Shown here: piece by piece, positions 127 to 34,417 of the stretch | Position numbering within the stretch: position 1 is the stretch's first letter | Layout: each line of letters starts with the position of its first letter | Virus genome (UHGV): UHGV-0210560 | Source: a virus | Reading direction: 5' to 3' (one strand) | DNA length: 34,455 bases | Made by a program: the position numbers and the translations under genes | The notes under the pieces: model-generated | The model's input: the letters and a program-made list of their open reading frames with translations, nothing else | The model's database searches: none | Told to the model about the DNA's origin: nothing

Positions 127-207
127 GCTTATAATTTTGAGCACCGAGAAAAATCAAGGTGCTTTTTTGATGCCCAAAAGGGCAATTTTGAGCACGGAGG
201 TGATACG

Positions 208-414
208 GTGGATAATGAAGCCATCGTCCGGGAGCTTGCGGGGCTCCAAGCGGAACAACGCAGCATGCGAAATGATCTTAGAGAGATAAAAAACACTGTC
301 AAAGAGATGTCACAAAAACCCGCGCGACGTTGGGACAGCGCCGTAGACAAAGTTATATCTGTCATGCTTGGCGCGATAACGTTATATCTTATGGTAAAAT
401 TAGGCATTGCCTAA
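208..414 (+). CDS. Small coiled-coil protein with C-terminal transmembrane helix (XhlA-like lysis accessory)
   Basis: GGAGG RBS then GTG at 208; coiled coil plus hydrophobic C-terminus; lies directly before the holin. Confidence 0.6.
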   Translation: MDNEAIVRELAGLQAEQRSMRNDLREIKNTVKEMSQKPARRWDSAVDKVISVMLGAITLYLMVKLGIA

Positions 415-429
415 AAAGGAGGAATAAAA

Positions 430-720
430 ATGAACATTAACTGGAAAGTACGAATCAAAAACCCCGTGTGGTGGGCGGAAGTCGTGGCGGCTATTGTGCT
501 GCCCATGCTCGCAGCGGTCGGTCTCAGCTGGAACGACATTACCAGTTGGGAAGCATTGCTTGACGTGCTCAAAGCAGCCATCGGCAACCCCGTGACCGTG
601 GTCGCCGTACTCGTGTCGGTCTGGAACGCGGTCACCGACCCGACCACCAAGGGCATCAGCGACAGCCAGCGCGCTATGTGCTATTTTGCGCCCGCAAAGG
701 ACGTGGTCGAGGATGACTAA
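430..720 (+). CDS. Holin (phi LC3-like family)
   Basis: MNINWKVRIKNPVWW start, two transmembrane segments, DPTTKGISDS motif; AAGGAGG RBS. Confidence 0.9.
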   Translation: MNINWKVRIKNPVWWAEVVAAIVLPMLAAVGLSWNDITSWEALLDVLKAAIGNPVTVVAVLVSVWNAVTDPTTKGISDSQRAMCYFAPAKDVVEDD

Positions 721-1459
721 GCGCATCAAAATCGGGATAGACCCCGGACATGGCGGCGCATACACCGGCACATACTCCGTGAGCACCGTCAAGGACGGGC
801 TCTACGAAAAGGACTACGCCCTCGAGCTTGCGCTTATGGTGCGTGAGCACCTGCAGCGCTGCGGCTTTGATGTGTACATGACCCGCACCACCGACGTGCG
901 CCCTGGCGACGTGACCGCCCGTGCTCAGATGCTCAAGGATGAGCACTGCGACTATGGTGTGTCAATCCATTTTAACGGCAGCGGCAACGCTGCCGCTCAT
1001 GGGTGCGAGGTATTTGTGCCCTATGCAGAGACGCAGGCGGCGATAGAGGTCGGCTACTACCGCGAGCTTGGCAAGTACTTTAAGCCGAGAGTGCCTTTCG
1101 CCCGGAGTAACTCTGTCACCGACCGCAATAACACTTTTGATAAAAAAATTAATTTGAGCACGCGCCGTTTTGACGCGTGCTCAAGCCAAAAAGAGTATTT
1201 TGGTGTTATCCGTAACAGCTGGCCGGAGGTGTCCACCGACCTGCTGGAAGTGTGCTTTTTGACCAACCGCGGCGATTTTGAGACTTACCTTGAGCACCGC
1301 GCGGAAATTGCCGAGGGAATCGCGTGCTCAATCGTCGAGGGCTTCGGCGAAAAGTATATCCCCGCGAATTTTGAGCACGGCGACGACAAGCCTGCAAAAA
1401 AAATTGAGCACCGCAGCCCTTCTCAAGCATCTTGCAACAAAATCAACTATGTGAAATGA
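713..1459 (+). CDS. Endolysin, N-acetylmuramoyl-L-alanine amidase (Amidase_3)
   Basis: IGIDPGHGG, E of YEKD, SIHFN and LLEVCF zinc/catalytic motifs; follows the holin. Confidence 0.9.
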   Translation: MTKRIKIGIDPGHGGAYTGTYSVSTVKDGLYEKDYALELALMVREHLQRCGFDVYMTRTTDVRPGDVTARAQMLKDEHCDYGVSIHFNGSGNAAAHGCEVFVPYAETQAAIEVGYYRELGKYFKPRVPFARSNSVTDRNNTFDKKINLSTRRFDACSSQKEYFGVIRNSWPEVSTDLLEVCFLTNRGDFETYLEHRAEIAEGIACSIVEGFGEKYIPANFEHGDDKPAKKIEHRSPSQASCNKINYVK

Positions 1460-1507
1460 GCACGTATAAGTCGTCCGGCGCTACCGGCTTGCAGATAGGA
1501 GAGCGCA

Positions 1508-1753
1508 ATGACGGCAGAGTACATCAAAAACAAGAAAATCATAAAAAGTGTATGCTCAAAATCCAAGCTCCGCGAGTATATCGCGGATTGCAATTTTGAG
1601 CACGAGCACGATGCGGAAATTTTGAGCATGATATACTTGCAAAATAAGGATTGCGGGTATGTCGCTGACATCATGGGGCTGTCGTATGACCAGACCCTTG
1701 AGCGCCACCGCAAAGCGGCGAAACGGCTTGCCGCCTTGATAAATGCCCCATAA
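1508..1753 (+). CDS. Small sigma-region-4-like HTH protein
   Basis: EILSMIYLQNKDCGYVADIMGLSYDQTLERHRKA pattern; AGGAG RBS. Confidence 0.6.
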   Translation: MTAEYIKNKKIIKSVCSKSKLREYIADCNFEHEHDAEILSMIYLQNKDCGYVADIMGLSYDQTLERHRKAAKRLAALINAP

Positions 1754-1786
1754 ATACCCCATAATCACCCCATAAACTCCCCATAA
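1746..1786 (+). repeat. Four CCCCATAA direct repeats at exact 11-bp spacing
   Basis: Copies start at 1746, 1757, 1768 and 1779. Confidence 0.85.
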
Positions 1787-1789
1787 CTG

Positions 1790-1837
1790 AGCCCCCTCCC
1801 TATGGTAACATAAAATTATAGAGAGGGGGCTTTTTTT
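1790..1837 (+). terminator. Terminator-like hairpin with a large loop containing a possible extended -10
   Basis: AGCCCCCTC...GAGGGGGCT followed by a T run; loop contains TGgTAACAT. Confidence 0.5.
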
Positions 1838-1839
1838 AT

Positions 1840-2223
1840 ATGTTTGAGCACGGATATACAGGCTATCCGGCAGGATACCAAAATCCATATATGAGCAGAT
1901 ACAACTCAGTGGCTGCGCAGCAAGCGCCTAAGTATGAGATAATCCGAGTCAATGGCGAAAACGGCGCGCAAGCGCTGCAGATGTCGCCAAACAGCGAAAT
2001 CATTGTCCTTGACAACACTGCTCCCATGGTGTGGCTGTGTCAGACGGATGGCGCAGGCTATAAGACGGTGCGACCCTTTGACATCGCACCGCATAAAGCA
2101 GCTCCGCAGATAGATCTTGCGGATATAGATGCAAGACTTAAAAGACTGGAGGAGATTTACGATGACAAATCCGATGTCGCAGTACCTAAAAAGCACATCA
2201 AAGTCACCGATGCCGAGCAATAA
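1840..2223 (+). CDS. Hypothetical protein, accessory cassette gene 1
   Basis: Y/P/Q-rich N-terminus, VNGENGA...DGAG motifs, short C-terminal coiled coil. Confidence 0.7.
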   Translation: MFEHGYTGYPAGYQNPYMSRYNSVAAQQAPKYEIIRVNGENGAQALQMSPNSEIIVLDNTAPMVWLCQTDGAGYKTVRPFDIAPHKAAPQIDLADIDARLKRLEEIYDDKSDVAVPKKHIKVTDAEQ

Positions 2224-2386
2224 TCCGATGCGAATGTTTTCCGAATTTCGGAAATTTGCGCAAGGCATGACTCCGCAGGATGCAAAGGCGGAGGTCGAGC
2301 GGCTGCTGCAAAGCGGACAGATGACGCAGCAGCAGTTTGAGCAGCTAAAGCAGCAAGCCGAAAGTTTTATAAAATTTTTGAAGTAA
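2162..2386 (+). CDS. Hypothetical protein, cassette gene 2
   Basis: GGAGG RBS, ATG at 2162; LLQSGQMTQQQFEQL motif. Confidence 0.7.
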   Translation: MTNPMSQYLKSTSKSPMPSNNPMRMFSEFRKFAQGMTPQDAKAEVERLLQSGQMTQQQFEQLKQQAESFIKFLK

Positions 2387-2437
2387 GGCGGGTGCACACG
2401 CTTTATATAAAAAATCAAAAGAAAGGACAGTAATGAA

Positions 2438-3022
2438 ATGGATATGCCTTTTTCCCTTTCCGATGTCGCGGCAGTGACCCGCGACGGAAATGATGGTGCT
2501 TTCGGCGGAAATGGCGCATGGTGGATCATCATCCTCTTCCTCTTCGTTTTCATGGGCGGCGGCTTATGGGGCAACCGCCAAGGCGACTATGGACAGTATG
2601 CGACCGCCGCCACCCAGCAGGAAATCCTCTACGGACAGCAGTTTGGTCAGCTTAATGACAGGCTGAATAGCATTGGCAACGGCATCTGCGACAGCACTTT
2701 TGCTCTTAACAACTCTATTACGAGCGAGGGCAGAGCGCTGCAAAGCCAGCTCGCCGAATGCTGCTGCGAAAATCGCCTTGCGACCGCCAACCTCGGGGCG
2801 CAGAGCGAAAAGCAGACCTGTGACATCATCAACGCAATTCACGCCGACGGCGAAGCCACAAGACAGCTCATCCAGACCAACGAGATCCAGTCGCTGCGTG
2901 ACAAGGTGAGTGCCTTGGAGATGGATAACCGCATGTACGGCGTAGTCCGCTACCCGATGGGCTACACCTACAGTGCAGGTGCATCTCCCTTCTGCTCCGG
3001 CTGTTGCAACGGCAACATCTAA
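2438..3022 (+). CDS. Gly-rich membrane/coiled-coil protein with Cys clusters, cassette gene 3
   Basis: GGNGAWWIIILFLFVFMGGG transmembrane segment; ECCCENR; C-terminal CSGCC. Confidence 0.75.
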   Translation: MDMPFSLSDVAAVTRDGNDGAFGGNGAWWIIILFLFVFMGGGLWGNRQGDYGQYATAATQQEILYGQQFGQLNDRLNSIGNGICDSTFALNNSITSEGRALQSQLAECCCENRLATANLGAQSEKQTCDIINAIHADGEATRQLIQTNEIQSLRDKVSALEMDNRMYGVVRYPMGYTYSAGASPFCSGCCNGNI

Positions 3023-3050
3023 CTTTACGCCCTTTTGGCGAGGCTGACGA

Positions 3051-3077
3051 GGGCGGCAGAAATGCCGCCCTATTTTG
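3051..3077 (+). terminator. Intercistronic stem-loop
   Basis: GGGCGGCA-gaaa-TGCCGCCC followed by tatttt. Confidence 0.5.
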
Positions 3078-3097
3078 TAATTTATCAGGAGGCATTT

Positions 3098-3493
3098 ATG
3101 AGCAAATCTATAATTTACACTACTAATGTGACCGCAAGCGCCGTCGCGGTCGGAGACCTTATTCCTCTCGGTAGCACCAGTCGCAGATACGGATGTAATC
3201 TCCGTCAGGACGGTAACGGGATCACCGCTACCGGCGCTGGGTACTACCTTGTCACGATGTCGGCGACCGTAGCTCCTACCGCCGCCGGAGCAGTGACTAT
3301 CACCGGTCAAAAAGACGGCGTCGCCATCATCGGCGCGACCGCCACCTCCACCGCCGCGGCTGGCGCTACTACCGACCTTGCTTTTTCCGCCGTCGTGCGC
3401 AACATCGGCTGTGACAGCTCCATCCTGTCTTTCGTGCTTACCGGCGCGGCTGCGACAGTAAGCAATTTTGCCGTCAGTGTAGTCAAGCTTTGA
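3098..3493 (+). CDS. Ala/Thr-rich beta-sandwich-like protein, cassette gene 4
   Basis: AGGAGG RBS, ATG at 3098; GYYLVTMSAT-type beta strands. Confidence 0.7.
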   Translation: MSKSIIYTTNVTASAVAVGDLIPLGSTSRRYGCNLRQDGNGITATGAGYYLVTMSATVAPTAAGAVTITGQKDGVAIIGATATSTAAAGATTDLAFSAVVRNIGCDSSILSFVLTGAAATVSNFAVSVVKL

Positions 3494-3503
3494 GGGTACA
3501 CCC

Positions 3504-3977
3504 ATGAAAACGGTGAAAAGCTACAAAAAGCGCCTCGGTGAGAGTATCGAAAAGTGTATGACAGAGTGGTCGATATCCGAGCGTACTGCCGCCGCCATAG
3601 ACCAGATGGTACAGTGCTGGCTGCATACGGATGATATGTGCAAGCACCTCTCCACGGCATCTTTTACGGCTGCAGACGCGGAAGCATGGGCGACAGGGCT
3701 TGTCAACGACGACGGCTCTGCCGGGGCACACTGGGACATGGCGCAGACCACCGCGGCAGCGGAAAATATCGGCGTAAAATTTGAGCATATCACCCGCGAA
3801 GAGTGGTATGCGGCGATGAACTCTATGTACTCCGACTACAGCCGCGTGGCGGACAAGTACGGCATCGGCACGGCGGACTTTTATGCCGACCTTGCAAAGG
3901 CTTTTCTCTTTGACAAGGATGCGCCGCCGCCGAAGCAAAAGCTTGCGGCATACTACCACTGCATAGTGGAGAGATAA
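3504..3977 (+). CDS. Hypothetical helical protein, cassette gene 5
   Basis: GAHW, AMNSMYSDY and AKAFLFDKD motifs; followed by a terminator. Confidence 0.7.
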   Translation: MKTVKSYKKRLGESIEKCMTEWSISERTAAAIDQMVQCWLHTDDMCKHLSTASFTAADAEAWATGLVNDDGSAGAHWDMAQTTAAAENIGVKFEHITREEWYAAMNSMYSDYSRVADKYGIGTADFYADLAKAFLFDKDAPPPKQKLAAYYHCIVER

Positions 3978-5671: not shown

Positions 5672-6743
5672 ATGGATTTATGATGTTTTTGAACGCATCG
5701 CCGATGATTTCGGCGGTGCGTTTTTCTTCGCCCGAGATGGCGTGGGCGTAAGTTTTATAGGTGTCCATGTCTTCGGAGTGCCCGACAAAAGGTTTTATGA
5801 CGCCTTCCGGCAAAATTTTTACGACGGAAACGAAAGTGTGGCGCAGCTCATAAGGTGTGACAACAGGAATACCGTTTTGTTTACAGTATCGGGCAAGCTT
5901 CTTTTTGTAATCGTCGCCGGAGGAAATTCCGAAAATAAATTCGTTTGTTGCCTCCGCCGAAAGCTGCTCTTCGAGGACGGCTTTTGCGATGTCGGATAAT
6001 GGCACGGCGCGCCGTGCGTTTTTGTTTTTGCCTTCGGTGATGTCTCCGTAGGCGTTGACAGCGCGGTGGATGCTCAAAACGCCGCCCTTATAATCGCAGG
6101 GCTTTAGCCCCATAAGCTCGCCAGGGCGAAGTCCGGTTAAGACCTGAAAGCGATATGCATTTATATATTTATCTTTTACAATTTTTCCTTGGAGCAAAGT
6201 TGTTTCGACTTGGAATAATTTTTGCAGGTCTTCAGGCTGAAGAATTGATTTTTCAGATTTTTTTGCAGCCGAAGGAATTACTAAGTCTTCCGGAACATAA
6301 GACGATAATTTTTGTTTGCGGCAATACTTTACAAAGCCTGTCAAATCTCCCCGAAGATTCATAAGAGTTTTTTTTGACAGCTTTTTGCGCTTAAAAGCCG
6401 TATCTATAACGCTTTGCAAGTCGGCATCGCAAAGCGAAGATACCGACCGAGCGCCTATAAGCGGAAAAACATAATTTCTGTATCGTCCCTCTACCGGACG
6501 ATAGTTACTGTACGATGTTGTAGCTTTGACTTTTTCGAGGTACTCCTCATACGCATCGCACACTTTGATCTTCTGATTTTCCACGCCCTCATCGAGCCAG
6601 AGGTCGGCCTTGCGATTTGCTTCCCGCTGCCCGGTGCGACCGGGCGTACCGGAGTAAAAGCTTTTACGTACGCCGTCTTTTTGCACATTGATTTGCCACC
6701 GCTGCTGTTTTTCCATCCATTTTGCAGTATTTGTTCGTTTCAT
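5670..6743 (-). CDS. int: Tyrosine integrase
   Basis: TGLRPGEL, K of EGKNK, YELRHTF, GHS and YAH catalytic motifs; AAGGAG RBS, ATG at 6743. Confidence 0.95.
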   Translation of the reverse strand: MKRTNTAKWMEKQQRWQINVQKDGVRKSFYSGTPGRTGQREANRKADLWLDEGVENQKIKVCDAYEEYLEKVKATTSYSNYRPVEGRYRNYVFPLIGARSVSSLCDADLQSVIDTAFKRKKLSKKTLMNLRGDLTGFVKYCRKQKLSSYVPEDLVIPSAAKKSEKSILQPEDLQKLFQVETTLLQGKIVKDKYINAYRFQVLTGLRPGELMGLKPCDYKGGVLSIHRAVNAYGDITEGKNKNARRAVPLSDIAKAVLEEQLSAEATNEFIFGISSGDDYKKKLARYCKQNGIPVVTPYELRHTFVSVVKILPEGVIKPFVGHSEDMDTYKTYAHAISGEEKRTAEIIGDAFKNIINP

Positions 6744-8687: not shown

Positions 8688-8856
8688 ACTCTCAAAATGA
8701 GCAAAAAAGCAAATAAACCTATTGACTTACGCTCAAAATGAGAGTATACTGTACTCACAGGAGCAAAAAGCAAGGCAAAAGAGGACAAAGCGCGAGAAAA
8801 GAGTGCTCAATAAACTAATACAAATATAAATTAGCACAAACCACGGCATTTGTCAA
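8688..8856. promoter_or_regulatory. Genetic switch: opposing promoters and operators
   Basis: Rightward TTGACT (8722)-17-TATACT (8745); leftward TTGACA (8856)-17-TAATTT; CTCAAAATGAG inverted repeats at 8691-8701 and 8732-8742. Confidence 0.75.
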
Positions 8857-9018: not shown

Positions 9019-9258
9019 ATGGATGAATACATCAAGCGAGAAGCGGTATTTATGAAACTAATGCAGGACGGGTGCAGCGCAAAAAACTTGCAATCCATCT
9101 CGGATATCCCCGGTGCCGACTTCGCGCCGGTGGTGCATGGACATAGGGTTGACGACGGGGGGTTCTACGCCAGATGCTCTCAATGCAACGGGGTACTGCC
9201 TCTTTGTGCCAACTATTGCCCCAACTGCGGAGCGAAGATGGATGAACAGGAGGGTTGA
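9019..9258 (+). CDS. Zn-ribbon protein, paralogue A
   Basis: APVVHG...CSQC...NYCPNCGAKMD. Confidence 0.75.
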   Translation: MDEYIKREAVFMKLMQDGCSAKNLQSISDIPGADFAPVVHGHRVDDGGFYARCSQCNGVLPLCANYCPNCGAKMDEQEG

Positions 9259-9260
9259 CC

Positions 9261-9569
9261 ATGGATGAATACATTGATAGAGAAGCGTTTAAGAAAAGCG
9301 TCGAGGAGCATTATTGTAAGCCGTGCAAGGCGGAGGGAAAAGACCACAACGGTTGCTGGTGTCGTGCCTGTTGGGTTGACGATATGCTCGATGAGGTAGA
9401 TTGTTTCCAGCCCGCCGATGTTGCCCCGGTGGTGCATGGACGAAAAATTGAAGACGGAGACATAGGGTGTTTTTGGCTGTGCTCTCTGTGCGGCGAATGT
9501 TTGCCGTATGGTGCGAATTATTGCCCGAACTGCGGCGCAAAGATGGACGAGGAGGAGGGCACACAATGA
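9261..9569 (+). CDS. Zn-ribbon protein, paralogue B
   Basis: MDEYIDREA...APVVHG...CSLC...NYCPNCGAKMD with an extra CxxC/CxxC insert. Confidence 0.75.
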   Translation: MDEYIDREAFKKSVEEHYCKPCKAEGKDHNGCWCRACWVDDMLDEVDCFQPADVAPVVHGRKIEDGDIGCFWLCSLCGECLPYGANYCPNCGAKMDEEEGTQ

Positions 9570-10315
9570 CCGACATACAAATTTTTAAGAACGAGCAATT
9601 CGGCGAGGTGAGGACTTCGGACGAAAACGGTGTTACCCTTTTCTGCGCCGCAGATGTAGCGAGAGGGCTTGGGTATAAAGACACGGTTAATGCCGTGAAG
9701 CAACATTGCCGTGGGGTGGTGAAACGCCACCTCACCGACAGCCTTGGAAGAACGCAGGAAGCTTCCTTTATTCCGGAGGGTGATGTTTACCGCCTTATAG
9801 TCCACAGCAAACTTCCGAGTGCGGAGAGATTCGAGCGTTGGGTGTTTGATGAGGTGATACCGACCATACGGCGGCACGGAGCATACGCCACGGAGACCAC
9901 CATAGAGAGCATAATCGCAGACCCGGAAAGCGGCATAAAGCTTTTGCAAGCCCTAAAGGCGGAGCAGGAGCGGAGGAAAGAGGCGGAAGCAATCGCCGAG
10001 GCACAGAAGCCGAAGGCACTTTTCCCCGACGCGGTAGCGGCAAGCGACAACAGCATTCTGGTCGGGGAGCTGGCTAAGATACTGCGGCAAAACGGCGTTG
10101 AGACCGGACAGAACAGGCTCTTCCGCTGGATGCGGGAGAACGGCTACATAATGCGGTACACCAACGTCCCCACCCAGTACAGCATGGAGCGGGGGCTGAT
10201 GGAGGTAAAGGAGCGGGCGATAAACAACCCCGACGGCAGCGTGAGGATCACGCAAACCATAAAGGTGACGGGGAAAGGTCAAGCCTACTTTGTGAATAAA
10301 TTTATAGGAGGGTAA
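9566..10315 (+). CDS. Antirepressor (BRO-N plus KilAC/ANT domains)
   Basis: IFKNEQFGEVR, FERWVFDEVIPTIRRHGAY, ILVGELAKIL, GQNRLFRWMR, KVTGKGQAYF. Confidence 0.9.
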   Translation: MTDIQIFKNEQFGEVRTSDENGVTLFCAADVARGLGYKDTVNAVKQHCRGVVKRHLTDSLGRTQEASFIPEGDVYRLIVHSKLPSAERFERWVFDEVIPTIRRHGAYATETTIESIIADPESGIKLLQALKAEQERRKEAEAIAEAQKPKALFPDAVAASDNSILVGELAKILRQNGVETGQNRLFRWMRENGYIMRYTNVPTQYSMERGLMEVKERAINNPDGSVRITQTIKVTGKGQAYFVNKFIGG

Positions 10316-10319
10316 GAGG

Positions 10320-11126
10320 ATGAAAGGTTACAAAGCATTTGACAAGGGGCTTGTGTGCCGCGGGAAACAGTATGCGGAGAACACGGCCTTTGAGGAGGAC
10401 GAAGCGGTTATTTGCCAAAAGGGTATGCACTTTTGCGCAGAGCCGATGGATGTGTTTGATTATTACCCGCCGGAAAGCGAGTTCGCCGAGGTGGAAGCAC
10501 CGGACGAAGCAGCGACCGATGATAACAGAAAGTATGTGACGAAAAAGCTTAAAGTTGGGTCGAAGATGAGTTTGAAAGAGCTTATAAGCGCACAGGTCGA
10601 AATTGATTTTGCAAAGGCAAAAGAGGAAGGCAACGGCAGTTACGCACCGGGCTACTATGGTCACGCCGCCGCACCGGGCTACTATGGTCACGCCGCCGCA
10701 CAGGGCGACTATGGTCACGCCGCCGCAGAGGGTAACTGTGGTCACGCCGCCGCAGAGGGTAACTGTGGTCACGCCGCCGCACAGGGCTACTATGGTCACG
10801 CCGCCGCACAGGGCGACTATGGTCACGCCGCCGCACAGGGCGACTATGGTCACGCCGCCGCACAGGGCTACTATGGTCACGCCGCCGCACAGGGCTACAA
10901 GGGTCACGCCTCTGTGGGCGGCAAAGATGCGATTGCCGCCGCTTTTGGCATAGCGGGCAAAGCTAAAGCCTGCCTCGGCTCGTGGATAATGCTTGCCGAG
11001 TGGGTGCTTATGGGCGACGGCTGGCACATCAAGACCGTAAAAACCGCCAAAATCGACGGCGAAAAGCTTAAAGCGGACACTTGGTATATACTTAAAAACG
11101 GCGAGTTTGAGGAGGTAAAGGAATGA
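10320..11126 (+). CDS. Hypothetical phage protein with internal 9-aa repeats
   Basis: MKGYKAFDK...GMHFC N-terminal domain; (GxYGHAAAQ)x10; IDGEKLKADTWY C-terminus. Confidence 0.8.
   Translation: MKGYKAFDKGLVCRGKQYAENTAFEEDEAVICQKGMHFCAEPMDVFDYYPPESEFAEVEAPDEAATDDNRKYVTKKLKVGSKMSLKELISAQVEIDFAKAKEEGNGSYAPGYYGHAAAPGYYGHAAAQGDYGHAAAEGNCGHAAAEGNCGHAAAQGYYGHAAAQGDYGHAAAQGDYGHAAAQGYYGHAAAQGYKGHASVGGKDAIAAAFGIAGKAKACLGSWIMLAEWVLMGDGWHIKTVKTAKIDGEKLKADTWYILKNGEFEEVKE
10644..10910 (+). repeat. 27-bp coding tandem repeat, about 10 units
   Basis: Variants of GGCTACTATGGTCACGCCGCCGCACAG. Confidence 0.95.
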
Positions 11127-11347
11127 TAACACTTGATGATATAAAGAGGATGGACAAGGAGCTTTTGACGGTGCAGGACGTGGAGAAGCTGCTTAAAGTC
11201 AACGGCACTACAATACGCAGGGCGGCGCGGGAGCACCCGGAAACCCTCGGCTTTCCGGTGATGCTCTTCGGCAAGGGCGGCAAACAGGTTCGCATACCGC
11301 GCAGGGCGTTCGTAAAATTCTTAGAGGGAGGCGGCGGCGATGGCTAA
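11123..11347 (+). CDS. Excisionase-like HTH protein
   Basis: LLTVQDVEKLLKV...VRIPRRAFVKFL. Confidence 0.7.
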   Translation: MITLDDIKRMDKELLTVQDVEKLLKVNGTTIRRAAREHPETLGFPVMLFGKGGKQVRIPRRAFVKFLEGGGGDG

Positions 11348-11600
11348 AAAGGCGCCACCTGAGCGCTCGGCGCTCGAAAAAGAGCTTTTTGCGCAGCGCG
11401 TGACCGAGGACATGCTTGCGCGATACATAGGGCGCAGCACATCGTATGTGTCCAATCGCATGATAGGGCGGTACGCGTGGACGGTCGCGGAAGCGTACCA
11501 GATACTCAAGATGCTGCGCAAAGAGCCGCGAGATTTTATTATTTACTTTCCACCGGAGGAGGGATTTGTGTGCGAAAAAGTGACATTTTGTGTGGGATAA
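11340..11600 (+). CDS. Cro-like HTH protein
   Basis: TEDMLARYIGRSTSYVSNRMIGRYAWTVAE. Confidence 0.7.
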   Translation: MAKKAPPERSALEKELFAQRVTEDMLARYIGRSTSYVSNRMIGRYAWTVAEAYQILKMLRKEPRDFIIYFPPEEGFVCEKVTFCVG

Positions 11601-11764
11601 TTGCTTTTGTGATTATAGTGCTTATTTTTGGAGCGGTCGGCGGGGTCGACTGCGGGAGGCTCAGCCTTGGGCGCTGCTTTTTGTACATAGCGGGGCTGAG
11701 CTTGGCGCTTATAGCCGATATCAAGATAGGCGAGCACCTGTACTACACCAGCAAGGAGGACTGA
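11570..11764 (+). CDS. Small membrane protein with two transmembrane helices
   Basis: GGAGG RBS, GTG at 11570; two hydrophobic helices. Confidence 0.55.
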   Translation: MRKSDILCGIIAFVIIVLIFGAVGGVDCGRLSLGRCFLYIAGLSLALIADIKIGEHLYYTSKED

Positions 11765-11767
11765 CAG

Positions 11768-12004
11768 ATGTGTGACAGATGTAAAGGATGCATACACCGC
11801 CGGGCGTTGGCCGGAAAGTCCGCCGCAGTTTGCCAGTACGCCATAGACACCGGCAAACTGCGCGGCTGCGAGCCGGAGGACTGCCCGCACTGGAGCGGTG
11901 ACCAAAAAGAGCTCAAGCGTCTGATGCACGCAAGCGAGGAGCGGGATTTGTTTGCCGCTTTTTCCGACTTCGGCGAGGCGAAAGGGTCGCAGTGGTATGA
12001 TTGA
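11768..12004 (+). CDS. Cys-rich hypothetical protein
   Basis: CKGC...CQY...RGC...C; AAGGAGG RBS. Confidence 0.65.
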   Translation: MCDRCKGCIHRRALAGKSAAVCQYAIDTGKLRGCEPEDCPHWSGDQKELKRLMHASEERDLFAAFSDFGEAKGSQWYD

Positions 12005-12191
12005 GCGCTGCGAGGTATGCGGTAAGCCCATCCACGAGTGCAAAGGCGGCATCCTACGCTGCCGCCGATACTCCTGCGTGTGCGCAAAGTGCCATTTTAA
12101 TTGCCAATTTTATCGCGATGACGGGCTTTGTTATTGGTGGTGCGCATACCCCGAAAAAGATAAAAAAATCGCATCTCCTGATAGTAAATAA
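11997..12191 (+). CDS. Cys-rich Zn-finger protein
   Basis: CEVC...CRRYSCVCAKCHFNC; overlaps the upstream stop. Confidence 0.6.
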   Translation: MIERCEVCGKPIHECKGGILRCRRYSCVCAKCHFNCQFYRDDGLCYWWCAYPEKDKKIASPDSK

Positions 12192-12458
12192 TATATATAA
12201 TTTAGTAGTAGTAGTAGGCATTGTGGAAAACTTTTTTTATTACGCTCGTGTGGGAAAGATTTTTTTAATAACGATTTTGTCATTCCGGGGAAAAGAATAA
12301 AAGCTGTTTTTCGTGAAGTATTTCACAAATTCTATGTGGAAAACTTGGTGGAAAACTCGTTGAAAACTTGTGGAAAAGTTGAAAACTTAATTTCAGCCCA
12401 AAATTTAGGCTGTGGAAAAGTTGAAAACTATGTGGAAAACTCGTTGAAAAGTTGAAAA
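12186..12458 (-). other. Putative replication origin of bacterial oriC type
   Basis: TGTGGAAAA (= TTTTCCACA, fits TTWTNCACA) at 12222, 12335, 12369, 12411 and 12431, plus degenerate boxes; (TAG)5 at 12203-12217; AT-only tract at 12185-12204. Confidence 0.8.
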
Positions 12459-12776
12459 TTGGAGGTGGAAGAATTGGAAAATAGATGCTTTCTTTGCGGA
12501 GCGGACGGACGGCGCGATCCGCTCGATACGCATCACATTTTCGGCGGCGCGTACCGAAAGAAAAGCACCAAGTATGGGCTCACCGTAAAGCTGTGCCACT
12601 ATAAATGTCACATTTTTGGCGCGGAGGCGGTGCATAGCTGCCGCGCGACCATGGACAAGCTGCACAAATACGGTCAACGAAAAGCCATGCGCGAGCAGGG
12701 CTGGACAGTGGCGGATTTCCGCCGGGAGTTCGGCTGCAACTACTTGTGGGATGAGTTGGACGGACAGGAGGATTAG
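12459..12776 (+). CDS. HNH-like Zn-binding protein
   Basis: CFLCG...HHIFGG...KYGLTVKLCHYKCH. Confidence 0.7.
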   Translation: MEVEELENRCFLCGADGRRDPLDTHHIFGGAYRKKSTKYGLTVKLCHYKCHIFGAEAVHSCRATMDKLHKYGQRKAMREQGWTVADFRREFGCNYLWDELDGQED

Positions 12777-12965
12777 ATGGATTATAAATTTTACACTTGC
12801 CCATATGACGATAATATAAGCTGTAAGCGGCTGCCGAGCTCGCGCTGTGAGGGATGCCCTATCCGCACCAACCCCGCGCGGTTTACCAAGCAGGAGCTTG
12901 CGGAGGCGATAACTAAGAGCGTGCTTGAGCGGCACGACCGTAATCTTATGAGAGGAGATGAGTAG
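12777..12965 (+). CDS. Small Cys-containing hypothetical protein
   Basis: AGGAGG RBS; starts immediately after the upstream stop. Confidence 0.55.
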   Translation: MDYKFYTCPYDDNISCKRLPSSRCEGCPIRTNPARFTKQELAEAITKSVLERHDRNLMRGDE

Positions 12966-12967
12966 CA

Positions 12968-13408
12968 ATGCTTACGGAGTACATTGACAGAGAGCGCACC
13001 ACTATTGCCATACTGCGGGACTACCGCGACGCGGAGTGGAAAAAAAGCACCGGCAAGGAGAAGCTGCACCAGATAGATGAGCGCCTGTACAAGGTCGGCG
13101 GAAGCTTTGGCAGCGACCCGGTACAAGGCGGTGCGCCGAAAATCCAAGAGCACTGGTGCGCGGCAATCGACGAAAAGACCGTGCTCGAAAAAGGCACACG
13201 GATGGCCGAGGAATATTTTGACGAGCTTACTCCTTGCCTTGCACGCCTTACGGACGAGGAGCGGGACATGATATATTTACGCTGGATTGACTGCGAGGAA
13301 CGGGACGGCATACAGACCATTATGGACAGCTACCACATCGCCAAAACCGAGGCTTATAAGCGGAGCAACGCCGCGCTTTCGCGGCTTGCAAAATTGATTT
13401 TTTGGTAA
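12968..13408 (+). CDS. RinA/ArpU-like transcriptional activator
   Basis: LARLTDEERDMIYLRW...AYKRSNAALSRL sigma-region-4-like C-terminus. Confidence 0.65.
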   Translation: MLTEYIDRERTTIAILRDYRDAEWKKSTGKEKLHQIDERLYKVGGSFGSDPVQGGAPKIQEHWCAAIDEKTVLEKGTRMAEEYFDELTPCLARLTDEERDMIYLRWIDCEERDGIQTIMDSYHIAKTEAYKRSNAALSRLAKLIFW

Positions 13409-13420
13409 GGAGGACACAAC

Positions 13421-13600
13421 ATGCAACCAAAAGCAGAGCTGGATGCTTTTTGTGCCCAGTGCGAGCACCGCGGCGAGACGATGTGCGACCGGAGTGGGGC
13501 TTGCGCAAAGTGCAAAGACCAGTACGAGTGTATAAAGATATGCGTAGAGGAAATACAGACAGGCAAAAAGTTTGCAGAACCGCCAAGGAGGTACATATGA
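13421..13600 (+). CDS. 59-aa Cys-rich protein (absent from the ORF track)
   Basis: AAGGAGG RBS; MQPKAELDAFCAQCEHR...; ATGA overlap with the next gene. Confidence 0.55.
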   Translation: MQPKAELDAFCAQCEHRGETMCDRSGACAKCKDQYECIKICVEEIQTGKKFAEPPRRYI

Positions 13601-13872
13601 CAAATTTTGAGTATATAAGATCACTTGATGATAAAGGGTTGCGCGCCTTTTGGAATTTCGCCGCCAGCGGCGACGTGGACATCTTCTGCGAGACATGCAA
13701 TCTGTGCCGGTACGGCGGTGTAGATCGGTGTATGTCAGCGGCGAAGACCGGGCACGGAGAGGACGTATTGCGTGAGTGCAATAAGGCCAAATGGCGGTGG
13801 CTGCACGACGAGGCGCACGCCCTAAAAAAAGCCGTGGAGGAGGAGCTGCGCCATGAGAGCAAGAGCCTGTAA
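13597..13872 (+). CDS. Hypothetical protein
   Basis: AAGGAGG RBS, MTNFEYIRSL start; Cys motif. Confidence 0.65.
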   Translation: MTNFEYIRSLDDKGLRAFWNFAASGDVDIFCETCNLCRYGGVDRCMSAAKTGHGEDVLRECNKAKWRWLHDEAHALKKAVEEELRHESKSL

Positions 13873-14173
13873 TGGCGGCTTGACCGCTTCCGAAAGAAAA
13901 GCCATGCACAACGAGATAAAAAGGCAGCTTGCGGAGTATGACCGCAGACACGCGAAAGAGATAGATGCCATTGTCTTGTGGGTGCTGCGGGAGACCTTCG
14001 GCTTTGGCGAAAAGCGCCTACGCAAGTATTTTGACGAGTTTGGACGGCAACTCAATCGCCTTATAGAGTACTACAGTATGGGCGAGGACGACGAAGCGTG
14101 GCTTTGCAGCAGGAAACTAAAAGAGGCAGGCATAGACCTTGAAAAATGGGAGGCAGAAAAATGGGATATTTAA
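13853..14173 (+). CDS. Hypothetical phage protein
   Basis: LWVLRETFGFGEKRLRKY motif. Confidence 0.7.
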   Translation: MRARACNGGLTASERKAMHNEIKRQLAEYDRRHAKEIDAIVLWVLRETFGFGEKRLRKYFDEFGRQLNRLIEYYSMGEDDEAWLCSRKLKEAGIDLEKWEAEKWDI

Positions 14174-14246
14174 TAGCGTTCGGGCTTGGATTTGTCCTTG
14201 GAGGATTTATAATGTCGGCACTGACGGACAAGGAGGGCAACGGAAA

Positions 14247-14540
14247 ATGAAAGTATATATTGCAGGCAAGATCACCGGCAACAAAAAATATCATGAAATG
14301 TTTGACTTAGCGGAGCGGGTATACAGCAAGAAATACATTGTGCTTAACCCGGCGACCCTGCCGGAGGGCATGAGCGCCGCGGATTATATGCGCATATGCT
14401 TTGCGATGATAGATGCAGCGGACTTGGTCGCTTTCCTGCCGGGATGGCGGACAAGTCCGGGCGCACGACTTGAGAGAGCATACTGCAGCTACATAGGCAA
14501 AGGCACAATTGATTTTGAGTGCAAAGAGGGCGGTGTGTGA
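14247..14540 (+). CDS. DUF4406 / nucleoside deoxyribosyltransferase-like protein
   Basis: KVYIAGKITG, VLNPA, LPGWRTSPGARLE. Confidence 0.8.
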   Translation: MKVYIAGKITGNKKYHEMFDLAERVYSKKYIVLNPATLPEGMSAADYMRICFAMIDAADLVAFLPGWRTSPGARLERAYCSYIGKGTIDFECKEGGV

Positions 14541-14541
14541 G

Positions 14542-14808
14542 ATGATACGATACATCAAGCGATTGTGTACAGCGATGCTCCTGCTGCTTACCACTTTGTC
14601 TTTAGCGGTCGCAGTAGAGCTAACGCTCATATACCTTCAGAGCGGTATGCTGGTGTATGCGGCAGCGGCGCTTGCCGCAATGCTCGCGAGCATAGGACTT
14701 TGCAATGCCGTGACAGCGGCGCTTATAGCGGAGCTATCGGATATAGTCACGGAGCGGGTTTTGCAAAACTGCGGAAAAACTGCGGAAAATAAGCTTGAAA
14801 TTTATTGA
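14542..14808 (+). CDS. Membrane protein
   Basis: Two long hydrophobic segments. Confidence 0.5.
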   Translation: MIRYIKRLCTAMLLLLTTLSLAVAVELTLIYLQSGMLVYAAAALAAMLASIGLCNAVTAALIAELSDIVTERVLQNCGKTAENKLEIY

Positions 14809-34388: not shown

Positions 34389-34417
34389 TTGACAACCCCG
34401 CCCCGGTCTGCTATAAT
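34389..34417 (+). promoter_or_regulatory. Consensus sigma70/sigmaA promoter for a small non-coding RNA
   Basis: TTGACA (34389-34394), 17-bp spacer, TATAAT (34412-34417), just after the stop codon of the last tail gene; no ORF with a ribosome-binding site (RBS) before the terminator at 100-126. Confidence 0.85.

Follow-up and report, generated by a model that had tools for sequence, protein, structure and literature searches.

Why does the lysis region of a temperate phage carry one 7-bp word so many times, on both strands and inside several genes? The window analysed here (the whole stretch of 34,455 nucleotides of UHGV virus genome UHGV-0210560) is a circularly permuted temperate phage of ~34.5 kb, the end and the start of which are contiguous in a relative. 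It comprises an integrase gene adjoining the 3' end of a tRNA, CI, HK97-like head genes and a lysis module (205-1459). Within the early region (9019-14808), PHROGs and Pfam revealed no gene for a replication initiator, a helicase or a recombinase.

A dense TGAGCAC array over the lysis genes

Recounting bore out the first-pass annotation of this DNA: there are 16 exact copies of TGAGCAC within 138-1851, 12 on the plus strand (at 138, 189, 780, 844, 940, 1155, 1291, 1372, 1405, 1457, 1597 and 1845) and four on the minus strand (at 565, 921, 1177 and 1324), and only six scattered copies over the rest of the window (32.6 kb). Extension to AATTTTGAGCAC is seen, as annotated, at 133, 184, 1367 and 1592, and the assignment of the copies to intergenic DNA and to the holin, amidase, HTH and first cassette genes, on both strands, holds (Table 1). 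The annotated expectation of roughly 0.2 copies agrees with the 0.21-0.30 copies predicted in 1,719 bp by Markov models of order 0-4 trained on the rest of the window. The HTH gene also contains one-mismatch copies at 1552, 1603 and 1623, the first of which is exact in several relatives. A search of Rfam returned no match.

Table 1. Features of the window that bear on the TGAGCAC array.
Feature	Position	Strand	Remarks
TGAGCAC array	133..1851	both	soft consensus (T/A)TGAGCAC(G/C)G
Two intergenic copies (138, 189)	133..195	+	spacing 51 bp; upstream of the XhlA-like gene
XhlA/hemolysin-like lysis gene	205..414	+	zero copies; phrog_937, E 1.4e-6
Holin	430..720	+	one minus-strand copy (565); PF04531
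Amidase_3 endolysin	713..1459	+	10 copies; PF01520
Small HTH regulator	1508..1753	+	one exact copy (1597); phrog_36
First gene of the downstream five-gene cassette	1840..2223	+	one copy (1845)
Protospacer	6452..6484	-	33/33 match to a G106 spacer
Two CTCAAAATGAG palindromes, likely CI operator	8691..8742	.	outside the array
Protospacer	10417..10454	+	38/38 match within the G106 CRISPR array

The array had been ascribed to selection acting on the DNA, and the enrichment survives a codon-aware null model. When the proteins encoded by the four lysis-module genes were kept fixed and their codons were redrawn 20,000 times, the mean was 1.70 copies and the maximum 8, for 12 seen, a number reached in 0/20,000 simulations. 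The recurring Glu-His peptides (xEH) attributed to the array occur at seven of the 14 genic copies; the other seven encode Ser-Thr, Cys-Ser, Ala-Gln or Val-Leu or overlap the amidase stop. This part of the annotation thus stands for half of the copies only, which strengthens the DNA-level reading: since the word is read in several frames, the signal is on the DNA. The amidase has been remodelled: it has 11 motif-compatible peptide sites, for 0-6 in 32 homologues, and uses 10 of them, and its residue 205 is a cysteine that occurs at this position in none of the 32, the window's sequence having no insertion. As judged from this comparison, the array sites arise by substitution, not by insertion.

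Three related phages (L279-L281), 94-96% identical to the window phage, keep 14-16 array copies, and the array region is also covered by contigs of runs from wastewater, pig gut and faeces. Being present in independent assemblies, the array is not an assembly artefact. No rearrangement joint was seen at motif pairs in four runs, the contigs of which drop rare variants, and therefore there is no sign of inversion. With the amidase and the HTH as single queries, the viral contigs gave no match. Conservation of synonymous sites in relatives, which the annotation had suggested as a check, was not found: third positions vary at 4/36 sites in the cores versus 93/461 (P 0.27), for 7/112 variable core columns versus 131/1,506 neighbouring columns overall. 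Similarly, in two animal runs the cores were touched by 6 of the 40 listed differences (expected share 10.8%, P 0.44), several of the six core changes being silent. Single phage sites are not measurably more conserved than their neighbours, and such site turnover fits a drive process without phage benefit equally well.

Two further observations concern the DNA downstream. The HTH gene is followed by CCCCATAA repeats with an 11-bp period (1745-1790), the copy number of which differs between runs. The five-gene cassette after the lysis module (1840-3977) has 529 relatives in viral contigs, and the 68 among the matches listed have no array and at most 3 copies per 2 kb.

The array word in the likely host genus and in other phages

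The amidase homologues pointed to draft genomes titled Oscillospiraceae bacterium. Three of the five such genomes tested contain 248-493 copies of TTGAGCAC (control 0-4), and all 36 species of one Oscillospiraceae genus, examined as draft assemblies whose completeness is unstated, contain 124-562 copies of TTTGAGCAC (reversed control 0-11). Among 151 genomes of the family, only two members of this genus stood out, with 223 and 408 copies per Mb (next 88), and 300 other genomes of the order have 0-31 copies of the 10-mer versus 185 in G005. The array word is therefore a genome-wide signature of the likely host genus.

Pattern scans, one of which covered 23/64 parts, revealed another phage, G001, as the sole relevant match, the others being mostly collagen-type and tandem repeats. 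G001 and the window have the integrase family and the HTH in common, and differ in the head module and the operator. G001 carries 28 copies of the word (control 1), with nine at the terS end, six in a structural gene and only one in the lysis region. In a third phage lineage (L289-L293), 6-9 copies lie in the linker of a giant gene. Hence, arrays of the host word occur in three phage lineages, in different genes, at positions that vary and share no common target. The TGAGCAC density of the whole phage (0.64 per kb) equals the host mean; what the phages do is to concentrate the copies, 16 of 22 falling in one 1.72-kb stretch in the window and 10 of 28 in G001, whereas the densest host stretch holds 9 copies in G106 and 12 in G179. 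The word is also scattered at high density in an unrelated phage group (L246, L236, L254), L246 having 27 copies in 19 kb (control 1), which is possibly an independent case.

The CRISPR array of G106, typed I-E from the repeat and from genes recognised by eye, holds six matches to the window (38/38, 33/33, then 97, 94, 91 and 91%), and its spacers also match G001 and 14/16 related loci. Because its spacers match them, G106, which has the sporulation genes spo0A, spoIIID and spoIIAA (recognised by eye), is the likely host of all three phage lineages. It also contains an isolated chromosomal gene (L486:1114-1776, contig C10), whose identity to the L292-lineage endolysin is 71% and which is followed by three motif copies. 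In the window, the segment 34389-34455 joined to 1-131 comprises a sigma-70 consensus promoter (34389-34417) and, downstream of it, a small stable RNA (z -5.5). This RNA includes a lone near-copy (21/22 at 7-28) of the repeat in the CRISPR array of the likely host, a terminator and, near 59-70, a stretch that presumably resembles a second CRISPR repeat end. This small RNA is conserved in G001, L279-L281, L283, L286 and L287, and is a candidate RNA anti-CRISPR (compare PMC10651486).

In the 1.149 Mb of G106 examined (~64% of the genome), TGAGCAC is the top 7-mer, with 734 copies for 85 expected, i.e. about one per 1.6 kb, and it takes first or second place among the 7-mers of the four other species of the genus that were sampled. 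The host flanks are graded, following (T/A)TGAGCAC(G/C)G in agreement with the window's flanks, and near-matches to the word are enriched. The word lies on both strands without replication polarity (281 leading versus 301 lagging copies, P 0.43, as assigned by local GC skew on draft contigs). In 762 kb of G106, 76% of the copies are inside ORFs, which cover 88% according to a simple caller. The longest stretches free of the word correspond to a 30-kb island and other islands, to the ribosomal-protein operon and to CRISPR-cas (genes recognised by eye). The word resides in core genes, and islands lack it. None of its copies lies near dnaA (C17 11743-19028); the word is not concentrated at oriC, and a DnaA box array was rejected as its identity. 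The dnaA region itself (L467:13999-16128) is almost devoid of canonical DnaA boxes. A further peculiarity concerns G178, which alone among the species has 8 near-perfect TGAGCACGTGCTCA palindromes.

The host copies are clumped and helically phased. In G106, 136 of 478 gaps are no longer than 50 bp (15.5 expected), and the adjacent direct pairs show a period peak at 10.4-10.5 bp, 107 of 131 deviating from a whole turn by at most 2 bp (42% expected), with R 0.60, where the jitter null reached 0.27 at most. This phasing is due neither to codons nor to duplication, as it persists equally in the 66 distances that are not multiples of 3 and in the 114 pairs whose flanks differ. Inverted pairs are also phased (R 0.42 and 0.50). 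The phasing recurs in G179 (n=30, R 0.61), the pairs being too few in G182 and G181, and the median R of 47 control 7-mers is 0.25 (top R 0.61, from just 12 pairs). As for the phages, 9 of the 13 window pairs within 100 bp are in the host helical phase (P 0.004, the pairs not being independent), and G001 is phased as well (n=11, R 0.77). Such phasing in both orientations over several turns would be the mark of a protein that occupies several sites along the same side of the helix.

What might read the word

We propose, with a probability of about 0.45, that the array is a dense cluster of the host signature that is likely bound cooperatively by a host DNA-binding protein, to which the phage DNA would look like host chromosome. 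The reader would be encoded by the host, because one consensus spans 36 species, and it would act inside the cell, because pili are mostly missing (see below). Most likely it would act as a sequence-specific nucleoid protein, binding several copies of the word cooperatively on one helix face, and would mark and organise DNA of long residence. The phage array would nucleate this reader, and the phage DNA would then behave as host chromosome; it may thereby be tethered or shielded from host nucleases, or its late genes may be damped. The earlier view of a protein-binding array is thus retained as the most likely reading, with the exception of its phage-encoded reader such as CI: the word likely docks a host protein, not the phage's own repressor.

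Screening 139 small conserved G106 proteins (in ~64% of the genome) for the reader yielded no convincing candidate. The recognition helix of a Noc-like ParB paralogue is altered in 5/5 genomes of the motif genus (L459-L463) compared with three outside it (L525-L527); this Noc is a candidate reader, although no Noc-type palindrome is enriched. For hundreds of sites to become inscribed in proteins, a strong force must act on each, of a kind more familiar from uptake sequences than from nucleoid proteins, and this need counts against the nucleoid-protein reading. On the side of likeness, Pseudomonas aeruginosa ParB recognises half-parS heptamers (PMC5961200), so that a 7-mer is bound there at hundreds of chromosomal places by a nucleoid-type protein. 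The phi29 parS sites and 0A boxes (PMC2731898) similarly show a spore-former's phage with sites for host chromosome proteins, but these are five parS sites of a rare, origin-linked palindrome, whereas the word studied here is spread genome-wide in the host. A parS arm was rejected as the identity of the word, as canonical parS pairs adjoin parB and the self-palindrome of the word is exact in only 1/36 genomes. CIRCE (HrcA) was also rejected, the canonical CIRCE being a separate element before groES.

The main rival, which we regard as rather unlikely, sees in the word a DNA uptake sequence recognised by a multi-site receptor other than a pilus, with biased uptake and recombination driving it into core genes. 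A cooperative receptor would densify the clusters, and the phage arrays would grow at tolerant places without helping the phage, in keeping with the turnover of the phage sites. Like DUS/USS, the word is short, non-palindromic and taxon-restricted, has a soft consensus and hundreds of copies on both strands without replication polarity, and sits inside core genes while being absent from acquired DNA, some copies lying in terminator-like hairpins; altered peptides are likewise described for DUS/USS (PMC2817400). Furthermore, Pasteurellaceae prophages accumulate host USS, as stated in PMC6776037, and simultaneous binding of several motifs would favour clustering, as argued in PMC1939737. The competence gene comEC occurs in 36/36 genomes of the genus, and dprA and comEA in 3/3 tested, but these widespread genes were also matched in 10-11 of 14 control genomes.

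Other lines of evidence speak against uptake. First, the host word is clumped and helically phased, not evenly spread, and the window and G001 have one or two dense arrays, whereas USS are spread out in the phages Aaphi23 and HP1, with at most 2-3 per 1.72 kb; besides, according to PMC7811141, two close USS add no uptake. Second, about half of DUS/USS are reported to lie in terminators (bioRxiv 2025.10.24.684340), whereas in G106 a simple hairpin rule assigns 22 inverted pairs, including the comEC terminator, to T-tract hairpins, which makes 44/734 sites, a class present but minor. Third, the word shows no clear bias towards maintenance genes, 16 pre-chosen genome-maintenance genes having 22 copies versus 17.3 expected (P 0.23). 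The apparent motif richness of comEC, addAB, mutS and recG disappeared with this pre-chosen list, and comEC has 0 copies in one of five species. Fourth, the Gram-positive host mostly lacks the pilus ATPase: a full PilB-like enzyme was found in 7/36 draft genomes, G106 having none, and the pilin leader was absent in the 3/3 genus genomes tested. The seven pilus-ATPase genomes have 56-110 motifs per Mb versus 110-331 in the other 29, a contrast that possibly reflects a single clade and is confounded by GC (60% in G182). The occurrence of these ATPases in only seven, lowest-density genomes points away from a surface receptor. Uptake motifs are known in only two families, according to bioRxiv 2025.06.16.659825.

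It is improbable that, as has been suggested for HIP1, mutations introduced by a methyltransferase with directed repair create the word, the phage gaining nothing from it. This process would account for sites that arise by substitution and turn over. HIP1 is a palindrome with a cognate methyltransferase, whereas the word is not palindromic, its flanks are graded and its near-matches enriched, and no matching C5 methyltransferase occurs across the genus, this class, the one examined genus-wide, being present in just 5/36 genomes. In addition, other GWGCWC words are depleted, not enriched; the depletion of related 6-mers was rejected as a trait of the genus, as it reflects a general avoidance of palindromes also seen outside it. 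The likeness to the cyanobacterial HIP1 (PMC1939737) is that of a clade-restricted, highly iterated word.

Less probable again is that the word is the host Chi or KOPS, i.e. a short, over-represented self-signature inside genes, the array shielding phage DNA ends from AddAB or guiding a translocase. The density of the word, the presence of addA and addB in the host and the mostly one-stranded arrays (12:4 in the window, 9:0 in the G001 terS cluster) would suit this role. Polarity with replication is the rule for Chi and KOPS, however, and the 281:301 distribution led us to reject them, so that this explanation is largely refuted. Moreover, helical phasing of pairs is not expected where the signal is read on unwound DNA, and the array lies ~13 kb from the terminase genes.

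It is very improbable that the arrays are pac-like packaging-start sites wrapped by the terminase small subunit. DNA wrapped around a ring of this subunit would yield phasing, and G001 has nine in-phase, same-strand copies at the terS end and terL start. Yet the arrays of the window and L289-L293 are far from terS, no terminase-like gene occurs in the 1.15 Mb of G106 examined, and the single consensus shared by 36 species with 46-60% GC would not follow from a phage protein.

The least probable explanation is that the sites are half-operators for the phage CI or the 1508 HTH, silencing the lysis genes in a stoperator-like manner: the CI operator includes TTTTGAG on its reverse strand and all array-bearing relatives have the 1508 HTH, but the HTH was the bait that found them and has no homologue in the genome collection by alignment, the word is enriched across whole host genomes, and the array is not co-inherited with the operator, since L280 keeps the complete lysis array with an operator different from the window's, L286 has the window's operator and no lysis array, and G001 has that other operator, with its own arrays elsewhere. 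We therefore rejected CI as the array reader, and with it the repressor-mediated silencing of lysis genes that the annotation had offered as an option; neither would the 1508 HTH or the ParB fusion, also suggested there, explain hundreds of sites in 36 bacterial species. Mycobacteriophage stoperators and the P1 C1 operators are many short asymmetric sites in a temperate phage, whereas this array is not tied to a phage repressor and the host genome is full of its word. Two immunity types, with two operator palindromes, are swapped among the related phages L279, L280, L286, L287, G001 and the window.

A possible self-signature and its phage copies

The array is real, due neither to chance nor to a phage repressor: it is a phage-borne super-cluster of an apparently undescribed, genus-specific and helically phased chromosomal signature. 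Few systems are known in which a word is iterated hundreds of times inside genes (DUS/USS, Chi, KOPS and HIP1). The word departs from each of them in a defining property, and none is known for 10.5-bp phasing in both orientations. A literature search, with most subscription papers outside its reach, turned up neither the motif nor a system of this kind for this group. Tentatively, a genus of gut Clostridia may run a self-signature system, in which an asymmetric word in about a thousand phased copies and a cooperative host reader decide which DNA is kept, protected or taken up, and phages may forge a super-dense copy to pass as self. Three phage lineages have built dense arrays of the word. The motif lends itself as bait for isolating the reader, and its presence is a simple means of assigning phages and contigs to the host genus; the signature would be either the first of the uptake type in a Gram-positive lineage or the sign of a new kind of sequence-specific chromosome protein.
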